Source of the DNA: Bacteroidota bacterium
Lineage (GTDB): Bacteria > Bacteroidota > Bacteroidia > JABEUT01
Reading direction: 5' to 3'
Assembly: GCA_013289165.1 (NCBI GenBank)
Contig: JABDAL010000002.1
Location: 3,278-67,277 of the forward strand
DNA: 64,000 nucleotides
In this document: in pieces, positions 1 through 11,640 of the stretch
How the letters are laid out: each line of letters begins with the position of its first letter
Position numbering within the stretch: position 1 is the stretch's first letter
Notes under the pieces: model-generated
Databases searched by the model: none
Seen by the model: the letters and a program-made list of their open reading frames with translations, nothing else
What the model was told of the DNA's origin: nothing
Position numbers and translations under genes: made by a program

Positions 1-369
1 AATGAAGGGGCAAAAGACTTTCAACTCGAAAAGATGAAAGACGAGAAACCCCTCTATACCCATGTATTGGAAACAGCCTCCAAGTGGGGAAAGAAAGAGA
101 ATACCATGTTTGTAATAGGCGCTACCAAGGAAGAAGAATTTAAACGTGTCCGCGAAATACTGCCCGAACATTTTCTGCTTGTGCCCGGTGTAGGCTCGCA
201 GGGTGGTGATATGGAAGAGGTGATTAAATTAGGGGCAACGAAAAATGGCAGGCTATTGATTAATGCATCAAGGAGCATATTATATGCCGGCAATGAACAG
301 GACTTTGCCGCCAAAGCAAGGGAGGAAGCATTCAGGCTAAAGCTACAAATGGAAAGTGGGTTCCATTGA
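1..369 (+). CDS. pyrF: Orotidine 5'-phosphate decarboxylase, C-terminal part (gene begins upstream of the window)
   Basis: The 111-aa translation contains the LVPGVGSQGG motif typical of type-2 OMP decarboxylase C-termini. The ORF is open to the window edge. Confidence 0.7.
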   Translation, partial: NEGAKDFQLEKMKDEKPLYTHVLETASKWGKKENTMFVIGATKEEEFKRVREILPEHFLLVPGVGSQGGDMEEVIKLGATKNGRLLINASRSILYAGNEQDFAAKAREEAFRLKLQMESGFH

Positions 370-449
370 CAGTATACTGTTCTTCTTAAAAATCCCGATT
401 TAATCTCCCTTTAATCTTATCCAGTTCCTATTTTGATAAGTTTGCATCC

Positions 450-2081
450 GTGAAAAGGTTATCACGTAAACATCTTTACTTTTTTTCCATTCTCTCCGGG
501 TTCTTATTATGGGCAGGATGGCCCCCAAATGGCTTTCCTTTCCTGCTGTTGGTCGCATTCTGCCCTTTGCTTGTTGTAGAGCATTATCTCTATACCCATC
601 GCATTTCTCAAATAAGTTATGGAAGCTTCTGGACCTATTCCTTTCTTTCCATGCTTATATGGAACGCTTTAACCACCTGGTGGGTATGCAATTCCACCAT
701 TGTGGGTGGATTAATTGCCATTATCTGCAATTCGTTTTTCATGGCGGCAATATTGGTGCTGTTTCACTCTGTAAAAAAGCGCATGGGGGCAAAGATTGGT
801 TATGCCTCCCTTCCTGTTTTCTGGCTTGCTTTTGAATATATTCATCTTAACTGGCAATTAAGCTGGCCCTGGCTTACCTTGGGCTTTGGTTTCTCCAATT
901 ATGTATGTTTTTTGCAATGGTATAAATTTACGGGCCCGCTGGGTGGTTCTTTATGGATATGGCTCTGCAACATTGCCGTATTTGTTTTCATCTGTAAAAA
1001 ATGGTTAAGTACTATATCATTATCTATTAATCGTATTGGTATTCCCTTGGCGTTGATTATTCTGCCAAGCTGGGCATCCTTTCTCATATACTGGTCACAT
1101 CCTTTACCCGACAAGCAAAAGGGAGTCAACGTGGTGGTGGTGCAACCCAATATTGACCCTTACAACGAAAAATTTTCCGGCAATTATGCAGAACAACTAA
1201 CTAAAATGTTTGCGTTGGCAGACACGAAAGTTGACAGCACTACTTCCTACCTTATCTTCCCTGAAACAGCTCTCACTGATTCAGAAATATGGGAAAATAA
1301 ATTCAGTGACAATGCAAGTATCCGCCAGGTGTGGGGATATCTGCACAAACATCCCAACTTAAAACTTATTACGGGAGCCGAAACCTACAAGGCATACCTG
1401 GATGGGGAAAAGCCAAGTGAAAGCGCTCGCAAATTTGATAGCGAAGACGGTTATTATGATGCCTTTAACACAGCCATGCAGATGGATTCTTCAAAAAGAA
1501 TAGAAGTTTATCATAAAAGCAAACTCGTCCCCGGTGTAGAGTTTATGCCATTTTCCAAATTATTAGCCCCATTGGGCAAATTGGCATTCGACTTGGGCGG
1601 AACCTCAGGAACACTGGGAACACAGAAAGAACCCTCCGTTTTTTATTCTTCCTTCTCCAAAACTACTATTGCTCCTGCTGTTTGTTATGAATCTATTTAT
1701 GGGGAATATATAGGACAATATATTAAGAAAGGTGCCCAACTGCTGGTAGTTATTACCAATGATGGCTGGTGGAAAGATACACCCGGCTATAAACAACACC
1801 TGTGTTATGGAGCCATGCTTGCTGCTGAATCGGGAAAAGACCTGGTACAATGCGCCAATACTGGTATTTCGGCAATAATAGATGAAAGGGGAGCAATTTT
1901 ACAAAAAACCAAGTGGTGGGAACCTGCGGTTATTTCCGCCTCACTTCATCCCAATAACACCCGTACATTTTATTCTCTGCATGGAGATTATTTAGGCTTC
2001 TATGCCATTATTTTCAGTGTCTTGATAATACTTTTTGTAAGTATCAAAAAAGCTACCGGCTTTTTTATTTCAAAAGGGTAA
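450..2081 (+). CDS. lnt: Apolipoprotein N-acyltransferase
   Basis: GTG start. A polytopic N-terminal membrane domain is followed by a carbon-nitrogen hydrolase domain ([26 protein letters not shown]). The length of 543 aa is typical of Lnt. Confidence 0.85.
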
Positions 2082-3681
2082 CCGTGCCCGTATAGTGGTG
2101 TATTGTCCCTGCAGGATCAGTTACATTTACCTGGTATATATACAGCCCCTGCTGGCAAACTTGCGAACCATTGCTTATTGCACCATTCCAGCCCTTTGTA
2201 ATATCATTGGTATAATATACTTGCCCCCCCCAACGGTCAAAAATGAACATTTCAAAGTTGGCAAACTCAGTACCTTTTGGAATAAAAACAGTATTAAGTC
2301 CACCTCCGTTCGGGCTAAAGGCATTCGGAATATAGAATGTGTACTGCTCACCTATTCTAATACATTGAGTAGCCGTATCGGCGCAACCATGGGTATCTGA
2401 AACAATAAGGCTTACACAATAAATCCCCGTATCCGAATAGGTATGCGTAGGATTGGAAAGTGAACTGCTAGTATCTGTTTTATCATTAAAATTCCATTCC
2501 CAGTCAATAATTGGATATTTTCCGCTTGATGTGCTGTTAAAAGAAACTGTTGGATAAATAATGTTTACCGGGCTGGGTGTATACGAAAAACTGGCCGTAG
2601 GTAGAGGATATACGGTTATCATATTAGAAGTCTGACGAGTTGATGAACACCCCCCCGAACTTACTACCGACAAGCTTACACTGTATTGTCCCGGCTCCTT
2701 ATAGCAATGATCGGGGTATTGTCCCGTGCCTGTTCCCCCATCGCCAAACGACCAGTCCCACTCAACAATTGGGGCAGCCGGAGTAGTATTGGCTGCAAAA
2801 AACTGGGTACATAGCGGGGCACACGCCGCACTTAGGTTAGATGCGAAAACAACCACCGGCACAGGGGTTACTATTACGCTCACAGTATTCATAGCCGTTC
2901 CACATCCCGTTGTATAGTCTACCGTATAAACAGTTGTCGCCTGAGGAGATACTGATACATATGCTGTAGGCATATTACCCGGTTGCCAAACATAGGTACC
3001 TCCACTGGGTGTTCCTGTTGCCGTTAAATTTACCGTAATTCCCGTACAAATTACTTTCGTTGTGCTCGCGGCAACCGTAGGCAAAGGAGTAACATCCACC
3101 GTAAATGTGGTTGAATTAGTACAATTATTACTGTCTGTACCAACAACTGTGTAAACAGTGGTACTTCCGGGATTTGCCGTTGTTGTAGAACAGGTCGGAC
3201 AGCTTAAACCCACGTTAGGTGACCACACATAAGTTTTAGCCCCCGAAGCAGTAAGGGTAGTGGAATTTCCGGCACAAATATGGTTATTGCCTGTTACTAT
3301 AACCGTTGGTTTAGAGACTGTAATATAATTGGGTTCCGTCATCGTATTTGAACCGGATGAATTAGTGGCAGTAAGTGTAACCGCATAGGTGCCCGGTTTG
3401 TTATAAATAACGGTAGGGTTTTGCTTGGTAGAAGTACTAGGTGTCCCTCCGGCAAAAGTCCAGCTCCAGGAGGTAGGGCTATTCGATGATAAATCGGTGA
3501 AATGTACACTATCGCCGGCACAGATAATTGTACTGCTGGCAGAAAAATTGGCAACAGGGGCAACACCGCCCTTTATGTTATGCTTCTGCAATGGATTGAA
3601 AGAAACCCCACCGGCAGATAAGCAAAAGCAGGTAAGCGCGGCACTAAGAATGATACATGATATAGTACTCCTCTTCTTCAC
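2065..3681 (-). CDS. Secreted PKD-repeat protein with a T9SS type-B (gliding-motility-associated) C-terminal domain
   Basis: Signal peptide, then repeated Ig/PKD-like modules (VxFTDxS...WxF). The C-terminus ([17 protein letters not shown]...[13 protein letters not shown]...GWNG) matches the CHU_C/type-B T9SS sorting domain pattern. Confidence 0.7.
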
Positions 3682-3814
3682 TGCAATACGTAAAATGAAT
3701 GCACAAATATAAGCAAAAAAAGGCTATTTTGGCTAGAAAACATTTCAACTACAGACTGTTTAAAATATTTATGCCGCCTACCCACATTTATCTTATTACA
3801 ATAGACACCTCTTC

Positions 3815-4084
3815 CTAAGCATTTTTATTTTCAATTTTGACTTGATTCATATTCTTTTCAGATTGTGCTGACTTATCTTCCTCTCTATTTATTATTTTTA
3901 TACCTGTCCACCATGCCACAACGGCTGATATTATAAAACACCACAACCAAGCGCGTTTGATCAATTTCTCATGTTTTGGACACTTCTTAAATAGGTGTCT
4001 TTTTATCTGATTTTCAAATATGGGCATTAACGTAGCTATTGATGCTGTTGTTAACGCTATTTCTTTTACATGTAGATCAATCAT
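3815..4084 (-). CDS. Small hypothetical membrane protein in the AT-rich region
   Basis: 89-aa ORF with one hydrophobic helix. There is only ORF evidence, and the surrounding GC content is very low. Confidence 0.25.
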   Translation of the reverse strand: MIDLHVKEIALTTASIATLMPIFENQIKRHLFKKCPKHEKLIKRAWLWCFIISAVVAWWTGIKIINREEDKSAQSEKNMNQVKIENKNA

Positions 4085-4201
4085 TTTTTATATTTTTACT
4101 TTAAACTTTTAGATATAAGATGGATTATCTATTCCTAATCGTGAAAACTCCTATGTAAAATTAAAAAATAATGTTCATTTTTGTATTTAACAATAAATTA
4201 T

Positions 4202-4224
4202 GGTAATTATACTAATCTTTGACG
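4202..4224. repeat. Left copy of a 23-bp perfect inverted repeat (ggtaattatactaatctttgacg). Its partner is at 8755-8777.
   Basis: The reverse complement of 4202-4224 is identical to 8755-8777 over 23 of 23 nt. The AT-rich similarity continues a few bases outward from both copies. Confidence 0.8.
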
Positions 4225-4297
4225 TATCAAAGAAATTAAAGATATTTAAAACGCATCGTAGTTATTATTAGTATATTTAACCTAAAGAATAATTAAT

Positions 4298-4486
4298 ATG
4301 AAGACAATCAAAACCGTTGAAGAATTTCAATTGTGTATCGACGAAGTAAATAAGACAAAGAAAGAAATGAATGTGAAAATTGAAATGACTGATTTTGAAA
4401 CTGAAAAAGTAAGAAAAAAGTTAAAGATGGATGGAGTAGATGTTGTAGTGAAGTCAGAATATGATGTTATAAAACCTTTAGAATAA
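4298..4486 (+). CDS. Hypothetical 62-aa protein
   Basis: A short, charged, K/E-rich ORF followed by a rho-independent terminator. Nothing else supports it. Confidence 0.3.
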   Translation: MKTIKTVEEFQLCIDEVNKTKKEMNVKIEMTDFETEKVRKKLKMDGVDVVVKSEYDVIKPLE

Positions 4487-4600
4487 TGTCAGTTGTACAA
4501 AACAGGAGAATTGCCTCTATTTAAATCAAATGGTGGTTCTATCACCTTGAATATTTCATTTTAAGTATGTAGCTCTGTTTTGCTAAGCCAACTGACTTTT

Positions 4601-4630
4601 ACCCGTAGTTTTCGCTACGGGTTTTTTATT
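4601..4630 (+). terminator. Rho-independent terminator
   Basis: Stem acccgtag/ctacgggt (8 bp) with a 6-nt loop, followed by a ttttttatttg run. Confidence 0.5.
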
Positions 4631-4699
4631 TGCTTACTTGGCGCAAATATACGCTTTATCCCGTCTTTATTGCTTAAAAGTTACGTTTTACCCTATTTG

Positions 4700-5806
4700 T
4701 AAATCCTAGAGTTAAAAAGTCGTTTTAATAGGTAAAAATAGCCCTTTTTGAGGGCTAATGAAAATTATTTTTCATTGATTATCAAAGATTTATAAGCGCT
4801 GTATTGAAAAATTAGCTATTTTTATAAGCGTGTCAGAGTTACTATATAGAAACCAAACATGGAAAACAAGTATAATTTTAAAGGTTTCATTTCGTTTTTG
4901 AAAATTTTTAAAGATGAACAAACATGCCGAGAATTTTTAGAGCACTTAAGATGGGGAGGAAAACCAGTATGTGTGAATTGTGGAAACAGCGAAAAGATAT
5001 ATAGATTGAAAAGTGAAAGAACACTCAAATGTTCTAAATGTGATAGAAATTTTAGAGTAACTAATGGCACTGTATTTCATTCAACTCACATTTCACTTCA
5101 AAATTGGTTTATTGCAATATATCTATTTTCTTCAAATAAAAATGGTCTATCATCTTGCCAATTAGCAAAACACTTGGAGATAACTCAGCCTAATGCCTGG
5201 TATGTACTTGATAGAATAAGAAATGTAATGGATAAAAGTAAACAATTTGATGAAATACTGGAAGGTATTATCGAAGCCGATGAATCGTATATTGGAGGCA
5301 AGAATAAAAATAGACACTGGGATAAAAAATTCAAATATAGTCAAGGTCGTTCTGTTGTAGACAAGAAACCAGTATTCGGAATATTACAAAGAAATGGAAT
5401 GGTGAAGGTGTGGACACTGGATAAATTGGATGGTGTAGAAATGAAAACAATTATAAGGACAAATGTTGTAAAGAAATCTATTGTTTGTACAGATGAATAT
5501 AGAGTATATAGAGGATTAAAGAATAAGAAAAGATTTAAGCATTATGTAATAGATCATAGCAAAAGTCAGCATAAAATAGATGAATTTTATCATACGAATA
5601 ATATTGAAAATTTCTGGAACTTCATAAAAAGAGCAGTGACCGGCACTTATCATAAGGTGGATAAAATATATCTGAATAAATACGCCAAAGAAGCAGCTTA
5701 TAGATACAATACAAGAAAGATGAGCGATGGAATAAGATTTATTGAATTACTTAAAGAATGTGTGCAAACAAAATTGAAATAGTAAATTTACGACTTTCCG
5801 TTATAG
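4700..5806 (+). mobile_element. IS1595-family insertion sequence (boundaries approximate)
   Basis: A single transposase ORF of IS1595 type. The candidate ends share only an aaagtcgt core (about 4716 and 5790-5797). Terminal inverted repeats could not be defined confidently. Confidence 0.35.
4859..5782 (+). CDS. IS1595-family transposase (N-terminal zinc ribbon plus ISXO2-like DDE domain)
   Basis: The N-terminal CxxC...CxxC zinc ribbon (CVNCGNSEKIY...CSKCDRNF) and a 307-aa length are typical of IS1595-family transposases. The protein is basic and K-rich. Confidence 0.8.
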   Translation: MENKYNFKGFISFLKIFKDEQTCREFLEHLRWGGKPVCVNCGNSEKIYRLKSERTLKCSKCDRNFRVTNGTVFHSTHISLQNWFIAIYLFSSNKNGLSSCQLAKHLEITQPNAWYVLDRIRNVMDKSKQFDEILEGIIEADESYIGGKNKNRHWDKKFKYSQGRSVVDKKPVFGILQRNGMVKVWTLDKLDGVEMKTIIRTNVVKKSIVCTDEYRVYRGLKNKKRFKHYVIDHSKSQHKIDEFYHTNNIENFWNFIKRAVTGTYHKVDKIYLNKYAKEAAYRYNTRKMSDGIRFIELLKECVQTKLK

Positions 5807-5879
5807 ACCTCTTGAAGGGAATCGAACCCTTAACCTACTGCTGCGAAACAGTTGCTCTATCAGTTTGAGCTACAAGAGG
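5807..5879 (-). tRNA. tRNA gene (73 nt, CCA not encoded). The anticodon arm is non-canonical. The anticodon may be TCG (Arg), but this is unresolved.
   Basis: On the minus strand it folds into a cloverleaf. The acceptor stem is CCTCTTG/CAAGAGG, the D-arm is GCTC-AAACTGATA-GAGC, and the T-arm is AAGGG-TTCGATT-CCCTT. The anticodon arm ACTGTTTCGCAGCAGT folds only as 5 bp plus a 6-nt loop, or 4 bp plus an 8-nt loop. Confidence 0.75.
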
Positions 5880-6197
5880 AGTGGAATAAAAACCACTCCT
5901 CTTTATAACAGGTTCTATCAAAAAGTTTTTCTCTAAACATCAATCTAATAATTCTTAGTAGGGATTAAGAAAATTAATTACCTTTGTGATTGATAGCGTA
6001 TAGTTATCGCCTTGTAGTTGGAAAACTGAGAATCTTCACAATACGACAAGGATATTACAGTCTACAGCGTGGGCTTGTTCTATCTTTTCGTATAGGTTCT
6101 TCTCAGTACCTCCAACAGAAGACGGGACTATTAGTCCCACGCTGCTGAGAGAAATATAACACTCATTCGGGGCTTGTGGGTACAAAACAATTGTACC

Positions 6198-6857
6198 ATG
6201 AGTAGGTATTTTAAAAAAGGGAAATTTGACTCAATCACAAGAGAAGAAGGTGTTTTTGTGTTGTTTAATGATGAAAACAAGCAAGTCTATTGTATTGGAA
6301 TTATCAAGAATGAATTTAATAAGCGCAAATTACGAGGGAAAATTTCTGGGAAAAGCAAAAATGATAAATGGTCTGATGGATATTGGAAAGCTTTAAAAGT
6401 AAAAAATATAAAAGATGTAGAAAAGGCATTAAATTCAATATTGAAGAGAATACGAAATGGAACAAATGAAAAACTAACTATTCTTTTGTTTTTTCTATTA
6501 TTTGCAAATTTGGTTGTCGGTCAAATAAACGATAAAGTTGTTAAAACAAATTTTTTTGGTGTAGTATCAAATAATGGAAATGTTGAACAAACTTCAGTTG
6601 AAGAAGTAAATATCTTCCATTTGATTTATGCTAATGAAAAATTAAAGATAGTCAAATGTTATTTTTATGATGGTTCAACAACGTCATACGATGACATGAC
6701 ATATGAAAAAACCGATAATAATGGTTCTGTGTGGTATGGTTGTACTGATGAGGATACCAAAGTAAATAGGTTATTTATCATTATGCATAATGGTAATGTT
6801 TTAATGATATTCACTGGTTCTGAGTATTACGTGTTTTCTAAAATAATTACAAAGTAG
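6198..6857 (+). CDS. Hypothetical protein with an N-terminal GIY-YIG-like nuclease motif, a central hydrophobic segment and a C-terminal domain
   Basis: GVFVLFNDENKQVYCIG fits the GIY-(10-11 aa)-YIG spacing, with downstream R/K residues. The hydrophobic LTILLFFLLFANLVVGQ resembles a transmembrane helix or signal peptide. The track ORF starts at 6174, but the ATG at 6198 (MSRYF) is the more likely start. Confidence 0.35.
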   Translation: MSRYFKKGKFDSITREEGVFVLFNDENKQVYCIGIIKNEFNKRKLRGKISGKSKNDKWSDGYWKALKVKNIKDVEKALNSILKRIRNGTNEKLTILLFFLLFANLVVGQINDKVVKTNFFGVVSNNGNVEQTSVEEVNIFHLIYANEKLKIVKCYFYDGSTTSYDDMTYEKTDNNGSVWYGCTDEDTKVNRLFIIMHNGNVLMIFTGSEYYVFSKIITK

Positions 6858-6894
6858 AATAATTGGAGTTATTGCATATATTATATACAATAAC

Positions 6895-7548
6895 ATGTTT
6901 ATACTTATATTTGTACTATTATTAATATTGATAATGGACACCACAGGACTTATAAATTTCTTTAAGGAAAAGTATCGATCTTATATTGCCGGATTAATAC
7001 TTCTAATAGCTATTATTGGTTCTATATATGAGATTTTCTTTAAACCTAAGGAAACTACAATGTTTAGTATTACAAGTAATCAGTCTACAATAGATACCCC
7101 TCATAAAGCAGTTGCATTAGGAAACGATAATGTTACTGTTACTGGAAATGGCAATCATATTGTTGGAGGTAGCGGGAATACAGTAGGAGTTAATGGAGAT
7201 GTAAATACTGTTCCACATATTAATGACACAATAAAAAGGAAAATTTTAAGTGTGCTTGTCAAAATTCAAGAAACTGATAATTTAAAATTACCTACTATAT
7301 TCTTGAAAAATGAACCCGGTTGTGATGAAGGATATTTAAAAGAAGTTGACTCATTTCTCCATAAAGGATATACTGTTCAAGAGCATTTTAATGATGGTAG
7401 CAATTATAATTTACCTTTGAATTCGATAGATATCGAGTCACATAAAGAGAGTAATATCATTGTTGTATTAATATCCAGGACTAATCCAGATTTTAAAACA
7501 AACCCTGTCCATTATTATATGAGTCAACATGAAGTTACTATAAAGTAA
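6895..7548 (+). CDS. Hypothetical membrane protein (2 N-terminal TM helices) with a GN-rich repeat region
   Basis: Two hydrophobic helices at the N-terminus, then GNDNVTVTGNGNHIVGGSGNTVGVNGDVNTV repeats. Codon usage is very AT-rich and no known motif was recognised. Confidence 0.4.
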   Translation: MFILIFVLLLILIMDTTGLINFFKEKYRSYIAGLILLIAIIGSIYEIFFKPKETTMFSITSNQSTIDTPHKAVALGNDNVTVTGNGNHIVGGSGNTVGVNGDVNTVPHINDTIKRKILSVLVKIQETDNLKLPTIFLKNEPGCDEGYLKEVDSFLHKGYTVQEHFNDGSNYNLPLNSIDIESHKESNIIVVLISRTNPDFKTNPVHYYMSQHEVTIK

Positions 7549-7641
7549 AAAATTTCAGAATTAGAAATAATAGTGGTTGTTTGTCTTTCGAAGTAAATAA
7601 TTGATATCAGAAGTTATTGTATGTAAAAACCTGCATACAAT

Positions 7642-7935
7642 ATGAGAAAATTAATACGATTTATTTTGCGTACATTTGGGGTAAAATATACAAAAATGAG
7701 CAAGATAAAAGATTCCGGCGATTTCACTACTGTTACCATAGATAAATCAACCTATAAAATAGAGTCCATAGAGGCAGTTAGACCAAAAGATTTGACTGGT
7801 AAAGGAGAGCATTATGGGATTGAAATACTATTTCATAGCGGTAAAGATGAGATAGGTTATCTCAAACCAGAAGAAAGAGATGAAGATCTTAGAAAATTAG
7901 GCAACCTGATGAAAGGTAAATTAAACGTTAATTAG
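7642..7935 (+). CDS. Hypothetical 97-aa protein
   Basis: ORF only. A 7-bp inverted repeat (ttgtatg...catacaa) sits immediately upstream of the ATG. Confidence 0.3.
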   Translation: MRKLIRFILRTFGVKYTKMSKIKDSGDFTTVTIDKSTYKIESIEAVRPKDLTGKGEHYGIEILFHSGKDEIGYLKPEERDEDLRKLGNLMKGKLNVN

Positions 7936-8154
7936 CTTGATTAGTAAAAGACGTTAATACCTTTTATATAAGTAGAAATGTAAATAATAAAAAGGTGGTT
8001 AACAGTAAACCTAGAAAGCCTACAAAACCAATACCATATTCCGGTACTCCTCTGATACCAATTCAATAAGGTTGAAGTTATTCCATGTAATTTGTAATTA
8101 ATACATGCAAAATGAATTGGCAAAAACTTTTTACTTTCAATTTAAGAAAGAAAG

Positions 8155-8529
8155 TTAAAGGCTCTGGAACAGAGCAGGATTTGAGGCTTCAAATACATTT
8201 AAAGCGTCTATCTCCCGAAATAAAGATAATCCTTCCTGAGCAACATTTAAACTCAAAGGCACTTTCACACCAGCTATCTTCATATTTGTACGATTCATTT
8301 GTTGATCATGGTTTAAAATGCTTAGAAACTGTTCCTGCCATCGTTGATAAATATAACAAAGAGCACGATACTCATTTTGTTCTTCATGTAAATATTGTTG
8401 AATTGTGACACTTTCTAATGCTGTATCAGAAACAGTAAGCAAAATGGTCAATAGTTCTTTTGATAAAAGTGTTTTAGTTTTCTTATCAAAATAAGAAACT
8501 ACTTTTTGAGCAACGTCGTAGTTAGTCAT
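8155..8529 (-). CDS. Hypothetical 124-aa protein
   Basis: ORF only. It overlaps the opposite-strand ORF 8112-8408, and which of the two is real is uncertain. Confidence 0.25.
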   Translation of the reverse strand: MTNYDVAQKVVSYFDKKTKTLLSKELLTILLTVSDTALESVTIQQYLHEEQNEYRALCYIYQRWQEQFLSILNHDQQMNRTNMKIAGVKVPLSLNVAQEGLSLFREIDALNVFEASNPALFQSL

Positions 8530-8754
8530 AGTAGTGTATTAGGAATATAAAGATAGTAAGAATTTTAAATAGGCAAATTAAGCCTCTAGCCCAATACTGG
8601 TCGGATAAATCAAATGCTAAAAACAATTTTAAAGCTAAATATGAAAATAGTAGATTCATAACACTTAGAACTTAGCTAATAAACTTTAGGCGATTTAATA
8701 ATAGAGAAAACAACTAATATGAAATTAGCTGATAATTAGGCATTAAAATTTTAA

Positions 8755-8777
8755 CGTCAAAGATTAGTATAATTACC
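8755..8777. repeat. Right copy of the 23-bp perfect inverted repeat (cgtcaaagattagtataattacc)
   Basis: Exact reverse complement of 4202-4224. It ends 9 bp before the ATG at 8787. Confidence 0.8.
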
Positions 8778-8786
8778 TAAATTATT

Positions 8787-10070
8787 ATGACAGCAGTTGT
8801 AGGTATATTAAACAGAAAAGCGGTAGCTATTGCAGCAGATAGTGCCGTTTCAATAGGCGGAAAAATTTATAATAATGCACTAAAAATATTTACACTATCC
8901 AAATATTATCCTATTGGGATTATGATTTATCAAAGCGCTAACTTCATGAATACTCCTTGGGAAACCATCATAAAAATGTTTAGACAGAAATTAGATGACA
9001 AGGAATTGGATACTGTTGAAGCATACCAGATAGAATTCATAAAATATTTGAAAGAAATGAATTTTTTTTCTAGTGAGCAAGATCAAAAAACTTATCTGGA
9101 AGTATTAATCTATCAACTATTAAATGTTATTAATAAAGGGGTAATTGGCAAGATGTTTCCTAAAGATTGGGATGCTAATGATAAAGCTATATTTCTTGCA
9201 CATATTGAAAAACATTTAGATGACAACTATTTTGTACATCTTAATACTTATGTTACATGTGATGATTTTACAAACTATTCGATAGATGAGTACTTACAAT
9301 ATTGTGATAGTATAATAAAATCTGTATATGAACAATACTATAATGGTGTAACTATTACAGACAATATAAAGAATAAGCTAAACAAAATGTTCTATCTTTT
9401 ACATAAAGGAAAGGAGTCTTTTTCTCCATACAGCGGACTTATCTTTGTTGGATTTGGTGAAAAGGAAATATATCCTGCCTTAGTTCCAATAATTGTATCG
9501 TTTGCCTTTGATAAAAAATTAAAATACTATGTTTGGGAACAAAGAAAAACGAATATTACTAATGATTATTTTATGCGTAGTAGTATAACTCCATTTGCGG
9601 ATACAGATGCTATGCAAACCATTTTAACAGGTATTGAACCGAAATTAGAAAAAACATACCTCGATAATTTCAAACGGTTTTTTGAAAAGTACAATGATGA
9701 TATTATTAATGTACTTGGGGCAGCAGGGACTAATGTTGCTACAAAAATAAAATCATTAGATATTTCTACATTAACTCAACAATATGAAAACAGTATGACG
9801 GCAGATAAACAAGAAAATTATATTGCCCCACTACTTGATGCTGTTGCAAATTTATCGAAAGAAGATTTAGCAGAATTGGCGGAAAGCCTTATATATTTGA
9901 CTTATTTACAAAAAAGGATTACCTTTGCAGAAGAAAATGTTGGCGGTTCAGTTGATGTTGCTATAATTTCAAAAGGAGATGGATTTGTTTGGATTAAAAG
10001 GAAACACTATTTTAAACCAGAGCTAAATCATAATTTTTTAGAAAACTATCTATATAAGCCTAAGAAATGA
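8787..10070 (+). CDS. Ntn-hydrolase (proteasome beta/HslV-like) family protein with a large insertion and an N-terminal Thr nucleophile
   Basis: Begins MTAVVGILNRKAVAIAADSAVSIGGKIYNNALK. After Met removal this gives Thr1, with Asp17 and Lys32/33 spaced as in proteasome beta subunits. The C-terminus ENVGGSVDVAIISKGDGFVW resembles the proteasome-beta SGG...v.v.itkdG strand. At 427 aa it is far longer than HslV, Anbu or BPH. Confidence 0.45.
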   Translation: MTAVVGILNRKAVAIAADSAVSIGGKIYNNALKIFTLSKYYPIGIMIYQSANFMNTPWETIIKMFRQKLDDKELDTVEAYQIEFIKYLKEMNFFSSEQDQKTYLEVLIYQLLNVINKGVIGKMFPKDWDANDKAIFLAHIEKHLDDNYFVHLNTYVTCDDFTNYSIDEYLQYCDSIIKSVYEQYYNGVTITDNIKNKLNKMFYLLHKGKESFSPYSGLIFVGFGEKEIYPALVPIIVSFAFDKKLKYYVWEQRKTNITNDYFMRSSITPFADTDAMQTILTGIEPKLEKTYLDNFKRFFEKYNDDIINVLGAAGTNVATKIKSLDISTLTQQYENSMTADKQENYIAPLLDAVANLSKEDLAELAESLIYLTYLQKRITFAEENVGGSVDVAIISKGDGFVWIKRKHYFKPELNHNFLENYLYKPKK

Positions 10071-10261
10071 AAACACAAATTAAAAAAATAGCAAATGAAG
10101 CATCCTCCATATCGAGGCTTTCATTAGATTTTTGTTCTGAATCCTATAATATTCTTGATAAAAAGGAGAAAAGCCCAGAAGAAAGAGCAGAAATAATATC
10201 AGATGCTTTAATTCAAAACATACGCAATCAGTTCAGTGTAATGGAAATTGCTAAGAAATAA
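10067..10261 (+). CDS. Small 64-aa protein translationally coupled to the Ntn-hydrolase gene
   Basis: Its ATG overlaps the upstream stop codon (AAATGA). The protein is acidic and helical-looking with no recognisable motif. Confidence 0.35.
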   Translation: MKTQIKKIANEASSISRLSLDFCSESYNILDKKEKSPEERAEIISDALIQNIRNQFSVMEIAKK

Positions 10262-10278
10262 ACTGATTCTTCCTCTTT

Positions 10279-11421
10279 TCAGCAGGCAACTTTCCCGTTA
10301 TAGTAGTAATTTTTACATTTCCCGAAGTTTGACCGACCATTTTCCTGTAAGAACTGCCCATAGGCAATCTCCAGTTCCCGATATTTCCCCAGGCCTTTGT
10401 TGTCATTGACAACCCTTTCGCAAATGGTATCTGCCAAATCAAATTGTATTTTGGTATCCAGTTCCATTTTTCGATTTACAAACTGCTTGATTTGGTGGAT
10501 ATATGCGAACCAGTTTGCATAATTGCCAATATATTTTGTTGAAATACCCCTGTGGTACTCATTTACAAAGCTCTTGAAATTGTGTATATAGGCATTGGCA
10601 CTTTGCACGTGCACAGTTTTATCCATCCAATCCCTATGGTAAGTTCTGGCTTTAAAGGCTTTATAAGAGATGTTGTTATCCTCAAAAAAGGCTCTGTAGG
10701 ATGTGTGCTTATCGCAACGGACCTCTATGTCTTTAAACTTTCCAGGTATGTTAAAATACTTGTCCAAATGAACTTTTCGAACTCTGCCAATATTACTTAT
10801 ATGAAAATCCAGTTTTTTGGAATTTCGTCCGTATGTAACCAGTACCTTCGTATTATAAGGTGATTCTCCAACGGCCACTTTCCGTCTCCATTTCCTGTAC
10901 CCGTTTTTATTTGTGATGCCCATGTCCTGCCTGCCTTTTCTACTGAGCATCAAATTGCAATCGTCAAATTCTATTACCTCATTCTCAAATGTTATATTTT
11001 GATTGCTGGTTAAAGCTGAAAGTAGTTTATGCCTCCAGTTAAAGGCCGTTTGTTCGGTTATGCCTATTCGTTTTTTTACTTCTTTTAGGGATGAGAAATT
11101 TAAGCTCATGAAGTCTTCTACAAACAGATTCCATTTGTTAAGCTTCTGAATATTGCTTAAAACCGTGTTTGTTCGGTAAGTGAAACTTTTCTTGCAGGTA
11201 CGGCAGATATATCTATGATGGCCGTTCCTGATGCCATTTTTAACAATTTTACCTGAGCCACAATGCCTGCAAGCAGTAACATCGGCATGCTCGTCAAATA
11301 TTGAATAACTGCTTCTTAAATACTCGATTAAATCTTGCTTTTCCTTGACGGATAGGGTGTTAACCCTCTTTTTTAAACTCTGAATGTCCACTTTTTTACT
11401 CTTTTTCGTTTCTTTCATCAA
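10279..11421 (-). CDS. IS1595-family (ISXO2-like) transposase with an N-terminal zinc ribbon
   Basis: CRHCGSGKIVKNGIRNGHHRYICRTCKKSF zinc ribbon followed by a DDE-like domain. It is unrelated in sequence to the 4859-5782 transposase. Confidence 0.7.
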   Translation of the reverse strand: MMKETKKSKKVDIQSLKKRVNTLSVKEKQDLIEYLRSSYSIFDEHADVTACRHCGSGKIVKNGIRNGHHRYICRTCKKSFTYRTNTVLSNIQKLNKWNLFVEDFMSLNFSSLKEVKKRIGITEQTAFNWRHKLLSALTSNQNITFENEVIEFDDCNLMLSRKGRQDMGITNKNGYRKWRRKVAVGESPYNTKVLVTYGRNSKKLDFHISNIGRVRKVHLDKYFNIPGKFKDIEVRCDKHTSYRAFFEDNNISYKAFKARTYHRDWMDKTVHVQSANAYIHNFKSFVNEYHRGISTKYIGNYANWFAYIHQIKQFVNRKMELDTKIQFDLADTICERVVNDNKGLGKYRELEIAYGQFLQENGRSNFGKCKNYYYNGKVAC

Positions 11422-11593
11422 ATCCGCTTTCTTTTATAGACGCAAATATAATAAAAATACTTTACAACTACCTCGATATCTTCAGATTATATCAAAATAT
11501 TTATCCCTCAGCTATTTATACCACCCATCAACCAATGTCTAGAGTAGAGCCAAAAATTACATTAAGTGACTGGTTTTATGAGCCTAATATCTT

Positions 11594-11640
11594 TACGTCA
11601 CATTGCCCGTTTCGTGAAAAACCGTGACATAACCGCTTTT
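11594..11640. repeat. Terminal-repeat-like block containing ccgtgacataaccg
   Basis: tacgtcacattgcccgtttcgtgaaaaaccgtgacataaccgc is about 90% identical to the reverse complement of 48236-48280. Confidence 0.6.

Follow-up and report, generated by a model that had tools for sequence, protein, structure and literature searches.

We analysed a 64,000-nt stretch of contig JABDAL010000002.1 from a Bacteroidota bacterium (the window; coordinates are counted from its first letter) and focused on the segment at 4202-8777, which is bounded by inverted repeats and encodes a transposase of the IS1595 insertion sequence (IS) family. The two repeat arms enclose, besides the transposase gene, five open reading frames (ORFs), one tRNA-like gene and one RNA leader. 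The features are listed below from left to right.

4194-4201, no strand: target-site duplication, left copy, TAAATTAT, identical to 8778-8785
4202-4224, plus strand: left inverted repeat, GGTAATTATACTAATCTTTGACG, exact reverse complement of 8755-8777
4298-4486, plus strand: 62-aa ORF between the left inverted repeat and the transposase gene, with homologues at the same position in relatives
4601-4622, plus strand: terminator-like hairpin 3' of the 62-aa ORF, a 9-pair stem followed by the T-run TTTTTATTTG
4859-5782, plus strand: intact IS1595-family transposase, 307 aa (Pfam, NCBIfam)
5806-5879, minus strand: tRNA-like gene, convergent with the transposase gene and beside the leader
5979-5986, plus strand: Bacteroidota-type -7 box, TACCTTTG (TAnnTTTG), just 5' of the leader, found by pattern scan
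5988-6150, plus strand: pseudoknotted RNA leader of ~165 nt, identified by covariance model and covariation
6198-6857, plus strand: first cargo ORF, 219 aa, with a remotely GIY-YIG-like N-terminus followed by a hydrophobic segment; its ATG lies 47 nt past the end of the RNA model
6895-7548, plus strand: cargo ORF, 217 aa, no family match
7642-7935, plus strand: cargo ORF, 97 aa, no family match, with a homologue in the related element L015
8155-8529, minus strand: cargo ORF, 124 aa, directed inward from the right end, with a 124-aa homologue at the equivalent place in the related element L020
8755-8777, minus strand: right inverted repeat, exact match to the left one
8778-8785, no strand: target-site duplication, right copy, TAAATTAT, ending 1 nt before the ATG at 8787

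Ends and transposase of the segment

An earlier note on this DNA, made from the letters and their ORFs, had claimed perfect 23-bp inverted repeats at 4202-4224 and 8755-8777 that are unlikely to occur by chance. Both claims were confirmed: the two arms match with 0 mismatches, and 0.00 such pairs were expected from 100 shuffles of the sequence. No further copy of the 23-mer was found in the window at up to three mismatches. Complementarity of the arms extends 1 base inward, to 24 nt, and the repeat tool reported an arm of 30 nt at 93% because the flanking duplication is partly palindromic. Target-site duplications, which the note had suggested looking for outside 4202 and 8777, are present as a perfect 8-bp direct repeat abutting both arms, and when flank lengths of 2-12 were compared the match existed at length 8 only. 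Both arms begin with GG, as do the ends of related elements. A short direct repeat just outside inverted arms is the trace that a DDE transposase leaves when it joins its ends to a staggered cut in the target.

Each arm also contains the TATAAT hexamer that had been pointed out before, at 8768-8773 in the right arm and mirrored in the left, reading outward. Sigma-70-like sites in the region were not above chance (24 found versus 28.1 expected), and the exact Bacteroidota -7 box was absent from both arms in a pattern scan. The hexamers were therefore dropped as meaningful promoters.

The transposase was correctly recognized as being of IS1595 type from the sequence alone. It matched Pfam DDE_Tnp_IS1595 (PF12762) at 1.1e-33 over profile positions 2-153 of 153 and Zn_ribbon_IS1595 (PF12760) at 4.2e-12 over residues 18-63, and it scored 181 bits against NCBIfam NF033547 (IS1595), for which the cut-off is 75. 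The residues D141, D212 and E250 do not vary across 12 relatives, and the four zinc-ribbon cysteines are likewise invariant in the relatives.

The segment is four times as long as a plain IS1595-family IS, and the transposase gene starts 657 bp from the left end, which might point to a composite transposon or to a small IS inside an unrelated unit bordered by repeats. However, a single transposase gene lies between the arms, and neither a smaller inverted-repeat pair around that gene nor any repeat-like sequence beside it was found (23-mer at up to three mismatches; GGnnATTAT ends). The arms are accordingly those of the entire 4,576-bp unit rather than of a small nested IS. Moreover, relatives with 2-3.5 kb of cargo share the single-transposase layout and the same small left-end ORF. 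A composite or nested structure is thus very improbable, and the proposal of a larger transposon around an IS was not upheld, as the IS itself carries the passengers.

Relatives of the transposase were fetched from reference genomes (7 loci) and metagenomes (80 loci), together with the contexts of two close proteins. In the protein collection, 1,056 proteins matched the transposase at E ≤ 1e-40, and the closest other transposases were 61-68% identical. Elements were delimited in 37 of 94 related loci by a blind search that required GG...CC ends, matching at 14 or more of 20 bases, and an exact 8-bp duplication; the count was 0 in every one of five shuffles. The relatives' ends had mostly been missed with exact 12-mer seeds and with a fixed GGnnAT motif; the repeat tool and the duplication-anchored search succeeded. 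The 37 delimited elements are 965-4,775 bp long and have AT-rich duplications, and all except one exceed the length of a plain IS (36/37). Carriage of cargo is therefore the rule in this Bacteroidota branch of the IS1595 family, which bears on the spread of accessory genes by small transposons.

The element with the most similar transposase (L020, 68% identical) is 3,467 bp long, with ends matching at 26 of 27 positions, GGTATTGAGTTCC[A/G]TATTTAGCCTTA, and the duplication TTATTTTA. Elements with GGCACTAA... ends were delimited in Chryseobacterium shigense (L007, duplication TGAATTTA), in Flavobacterium cerinum (L005, duplication TTTTTTAT) and in a Bacteroidia metagenome-assembled genome (L008, duplication ATAATTTT). 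Cargo is partly syntenic: the 62-aa ORF occurs in six elements including that of the window, and the 124-aa and 97-aa ORFs occur in one relative each. A search for plasmid similarity returned only a 120-bp match, which lies inside a Bacteroides IS1595 transposase gene. We also observed that an element with a transposase 42% identical to that of the window (L043, 3642-7231, 3.6 kb) shares the 8-bp duplication TAAATTAT with it; a coincidence arising from the family's preference for AT-rich targets is the simplest explanation.

Identity, mobility and alternative readings

These results indicate that the 23-bp repeats are very probably the terminal inverted repeats that bound an IS1595-family passenger-carrying IS (tIS) of 4,576 bp, spanning 4202-8777. 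Members of the IS1595 family usually have 8-bp duplications and one transposase gene, whose product combines a zinc finger at the N-terminus with a DDE domain (PMC8101967). The term tIS, short for transporter IS, denotes elements that resemble IS but include passenger genes, and these have so far been confined to the IS1595 and IS66 families (bioRxiv 10.1101/2021.05.26.445724; PMC3129680). Passenger-carrying IS1595 subgroups are listed in ISfinder and are credited to Siguier, Gagnevin and Chandler 2009 where that work is cited in PMC8101967 and PMC3129680. In the window we found a DDE_Tnp_IS1595 domain, an N-terminal zinc ribbon, terminal inverted repeats and the 8-bp target-site duplication that define the family, as well as the single transposase, the genes unrelated to transposition inside the ends and the lack of flanking IS copies that define a tIS. 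The element resembles known IS1595 tIS in having one zinc-ribbon and DDE transposase, short GG-initiated inverted repeats, an 8-bp duplication and internal passengers. It differs from them in that the closest transposase is 68% identical and in that, as far as checked, neither this copy nor its close relatives have been named. The tIS is thus an ordinary mobile element of a class already described for the IS1595 family. For annotation, 4202-8777 is to be treated as one mobile unit, in which the genes are passengers and not part of a host locus.

Two further groups share some of these features. Merlin transposons of eukaryotes and IS1016 of bacteria have in common with the window element the DDE_Tnp_IS1595 domain, terminal 5'-GG and 8-9-bp duplications (PMC8101967). 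Unlike the window element, they lack the N-terminal zinc ribbon and passenger genes.

In the proposed mechanism, the 307-aa transposase would bind both 23-bp ends, cutting at the outer GG, and the ends would be joined to AT-rich target DNA with an 8-bp stagger, the repair of which would yield the flanking duplication TAAATTAT. Everything between the ends would move as one unit, namely the 62-aa ORF, the transposase gene, the tRNA-like gene, the RNA leader and the four cargo ORFs. The uninserted site would read ...AACAATAAATTAT|TATGACAGCAG, and the circle junction of the abutted ends would read CGTCAAAGATTAGTATAATTACC[0-8 nt]GGTAATTATACTAATCTTTGACG. We infer, and only infer, the present activity of this copy and the chemistry of its transposition (cut-and-paste or copy). 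The identical arms and the undamaged duplication suggest a recent insertion, although they would not thereby prove present activity.

Several observations weigh against the assignment. Only one copy is present in the 64-kb window, and the exact transposase was found only in assemblies of the same strain. Exact scans of genome, metagenome and viral collections, which are of limited power, did not find the 23-mer; the metagenome scan returned nothing even though JGI contig Ga0206994_1229 (L010) holds the 23-mer at 463-485, so these negative scans are not proof of absence. No empty site was recovered, as look-ups of the exact proteins (transposase, Ntn-like ORF, 124-aa ORF, second transposase and Lnt) gave same-strain contigs only; movement is accordingly deduced from the duplication rather than observed. 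Finally, placement in the ISNwi1 subgroup is tentative and rests on what we take to be the ISfinder end consensus, ggnnatTAT, and on a length of up to ~4.75 kb with passengers; a literature search for ISNwi1 gave no source for the end consensus. The end of the window element reads GGTAATTAT, and its length is 4,576 bp, both of which would suit this subgroup.

The detection of a single copy and the failure to find an empty site could also mean that the element is real but non-autonomous, being either a relic or moved in trans, for example by a second IS1595-family transposase (10279-11421, 99.3 bits) that lies 1.5 kb from the right end. Against this, the transposase inside the segment is of full length, spans the complete DDE profile and retains the residues that are invariant in 12 relatives, and the identical arms and undamaged duplication argue for a recent event. 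The neighbouring transposase has no pairwise similarity to the internal one (E 1.8) and has no detectable ends. A relic or an element dependent on another transposase is therefore improbable, and mobilization in trans by the second transposase in particular is unlikely. The tIS looks autonomous. Of the earlier suggestion that the repeats are termini of a non-autonomous transposon, the termini stood, given the duplications and the same architecture in relatives, whereas "non-autonomous" did not, given the full-length transposase inside.

The repeats had alternatively been proposed to be recombinase-bound inversion sites, which would make the 4.5-kb segment an invertible switch that puts alternative sequences upstream of the Ntn-like gene. 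In support of a switch, the inverted arms match perfectly, and 9 bp separate the right arm from the start codon, as the note had said (8777 versus the ATG at 8787). Short inverted repeats beside a gene start in a Bacteroidota genome are also a feature of Bacteroides invertons. Invertons span a few hundred bp, depend on a site-specific recombinase in their vicinity and are not flanked by a direct repeat. The window segment, in contrast, is 4.5 kb long, and no recombinase-family match was found among the scanned ORFs between 450 and 14004. In addition, the 8-bp direct repeat outside the inverted arms marks transposition and has no role in inversion, and the same pattern of arms and duplication surrounds transposase genes in dozens of unrelated contexts.

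A contig of variant structure from the same strain (L001; Logan, SRR8422341) provided further evidence on both sides. It is 100% identical to window 1-4218 and 4356-11623, with the two parts joined via 2.2 kb of prfA-side sequence in inverted order. One of its ends (L001 1-20) stops at window 4218, inside the left arm. At the junction (L001 6390-6420), which is of inversion type, window 4225-4235 is followed by 4364 onward, and the inner edge of the left arm is exactly where the foreign sequence sets in. The contig thereby lacks 128 bp (4236-4363) between two copies of CAAAGAAA, at 4228-4235 and 4356-4363. The stop within the left arm and the junction at its inner edge would fit a switch. However, inversion between the arms would have fused the left flank and left arm to the right interior in reverse complement, and the L001 junction is not such a fusion. 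The public same-strain assembled contigs that cross the right arm (L001 and L010) show the window's orientation only. The junction may represent a rearranged subpopulation or an assembly artefact. We conclude that an invertible switch is highly improbable and that the repeats are better explained as the ends of a tIS.

The structured RNA leader

The region 5960-6200 is conserved in DNA among relatives whose adjoining ORFs are not. It holds a leader at 5988-6150 with the following helices.

5992-5997 with 6003-6008, plus strand: helix P0
6010-6015 with 6046-6051, plus strand: helix P1
6017-6021 with 6112-6116, plus strand: helix A, 5 bp
6026-6032 with 6100-6106, plus strand: helix B, 7 bp
6065-6073 with 6136-6144, plus strand: helix C

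The P1 loop pairs through helices A and B with the downstream region enclosed by helix C. The crossing of P1 and C by helices A and B makes this fold a pseudoknot. Helix C contains an invariant GCGTGGG...CCCACGC, directly followed on its 3' side by a U-run in most members. The TAnnTTTG pattern just 5' of the leader is what we take to be the Bacteroidota -7 promoter consensus; the related element L015 has TATATTTG at the equivalent place.

With a covariance model derived solely from the window sequence, full-length matches to the leader were found in 14 distinct related loci, in three of which it lies on the opposite strand relative to the transposase, and 12 delimited IS1595 tIS contain it. 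In the alignment of the related loci, 94% of the cells pair, versus 32-43% when the partner is slid, and 18 of 22 pairs show compensatory changes. Over the related loci and the 17 distinct viral sequences, 92-94% of the cells were paired, versus 30-50% with a slid partner, and compensatory changes were numerous. These alignments were fitted to the model and are thus biased toward it, although the margin is large. P1 also covaries. Changes from A·U to G·U place the leader on the plus strand in the window. A comparison with Rfam 15 gave no relevant family, either for 3500-11500 (E ≤ 1) or for 5880-6210 (E ≤ 10), the listings being unrelated and at chance level.

A competing helix was also detected, in which the bases 5' of CCC pair, with covariation, with a GGG element ~20-25 nt before the ATG. 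It is present in most tIS-associated members and in several phage members; examples are AGTCCC/GGGACT, TAAACCC/GGGTTTA and TACAATCCC/GGGATTGTG. The downstream ATG lies 39-53 nt past the end of the model in 28 of 30 instances. We read the leader as a cis-acting RNA in which two competing conformations, as predicted from covariation, would gate the first cargo gene. The proteins encoded downstream are mutually unrelated (nucleases, lipoprotein-like ORFs and unknowns), so a ligand cannot be guessed from gene context.

The leader is not confined to transposons. Its motif pattern matched 98 viral contigs, versus ~14 by chance on a rough estimate, and the model recovered the full motif in ~48 of 80 fetched viral loci, representing 17 distinct sequences, with helix A 100% and helix B 98% paired. 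An IS1595 transposase lies nearby in only two of these 80 loci. In two prophage-like contigs, the leader has lysis genes on one side and, on the other, an accessory nuclease gene (Mrr-like or HsdR_N-like) that is followed by a tyrosine integrase gene. In the Bacteroides phage Versailles, the leader region (L201 3501-3667; ON453897.1 2857-3023, minus strand) is annotated as a 56-aa hypothetical protein, which is probably a spurious call over a non-coding RNA.

The leader resembles riboswitch and attenuator leaders in having its own promoter box, a covarying, multi-helix, pseudoknotted fold, a GC-rich closing helix with a U-run in most members, a competing downstream helix and a fixed distance to the start codon. 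It differs from them in belonging to no Rfam 15 family, in preceding unrelated genes and in being so far confined to Bacteroidota mobile elements. A literature search on IS1595-linked RNA found nothing, and we know of no description of a tRNA-like gene or a structured RNA leader as tIS cargo. Tentatively, and as a possibility that we take seriously, we propose that the leader represents an undescribed class of cis-acting RNA that heads unrelated accessory genes in IS1595 tIS and Bacteroides-type prophages, and that it could act as a portable switch for "leader plus gene" cassettes exchanged between Bacteroidota transposons and phages; the tRNA-like gene may share this module. Should the leader prove real, transposons and temperate phages would have a structured regulatory RNA in common, and it would matter more than the transposon. 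The transposon itself is unremarkable, and the RNA leader is the item that deserves specialist attention.

The tRNA-like gene, cargo ORFs and insertion site

The gene at 5806-5879 had been taken for a tRNA. It scored 54.9 bits against the Rfam tRNA family, and its cloverleaf stems and T-loop are intact. It is nevertheless only tRNA-like: the anticodon loop, TTCGCA, has 6 nt instead of the canonical 7, the D-loop, AAACTGATA, lacks the GG corresponding to G18-G19, and ARAGORN reported "tRNA-??? (cg)". A homologue is located at the same position in L015 (7968-8041, minus strand), where ARAGORN reported tRNA-Gly(ACC). The two genes have identical acceptor stems and differ by five compensatory pair changes, and their anticodon arms are otherwise unrelated. 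Judging from this comparison, the tRNA-like fold seems to be under selection and the decoding identity does not.

The four cargo ORFs downstream of the leader gave nothing above threshold in any of four libraries (Pfam, NCBIfam, PADLOC and PHROG). A defence function for the cargo was considered and rejected, as there was no PADLOC match. The earlier description of the 219-aa ORF as GIY-YIG-like received remote support, in that it is 27% identical over 176 aa to an ORF of L015 and in that GIY-YIG was matched by two members of the set of ORFs downstream of the leader; the 219-aa ORF itself had no Pfam match. Homologues of the 62-aa ORF at the left end are found at the equivalent position in five other close-clade elements (L003, L015, L020, L023 and L028), and it had no match in the same four libraries. 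An exact Bacteroidota -7 box, TATATTTG, at 4651-4644 on the minus strand faces this ORF, and an antisense transcript toward it may be produced.

The element inserted 1 bp upstream of the Ntn-like ORF's start codon (ATG 8787), and the former upstream region of this ORF (4085-4201) is now 4.58 kb away. The insertion may affect expression of this ORF. Its designation as an Ntn-hydrolase rests on a Proteasome match at E 0.008, which is sub-threshold, and a search for sequence relatives in the PDB found none. The ORF has a full-length match to PHROG 5990, a family of unknown function.

The second IS1595-family transposase (10279-11421, minus strand; NCBIfam, 99.3 bits) was observed at the right edge of a low-GC island. 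No ends or duplication were found for it by local alignment, by repeat search or by a repeat-plus-duplication finder run with the tIS removed in silico, and the Ntn-like ORF was accordingly rejected as its passenger.

The target itself is low in GC, with ~29-31% over 4001-10000 versus ~41-43% to the left. The island (~3700-10270) reaches beyond the transposon on both sides and contains an 89-aa ORF, the Ntn-like ORF and a 64-aa ORF. The transposon looks to have landed in DNA that was already foreign-looking.

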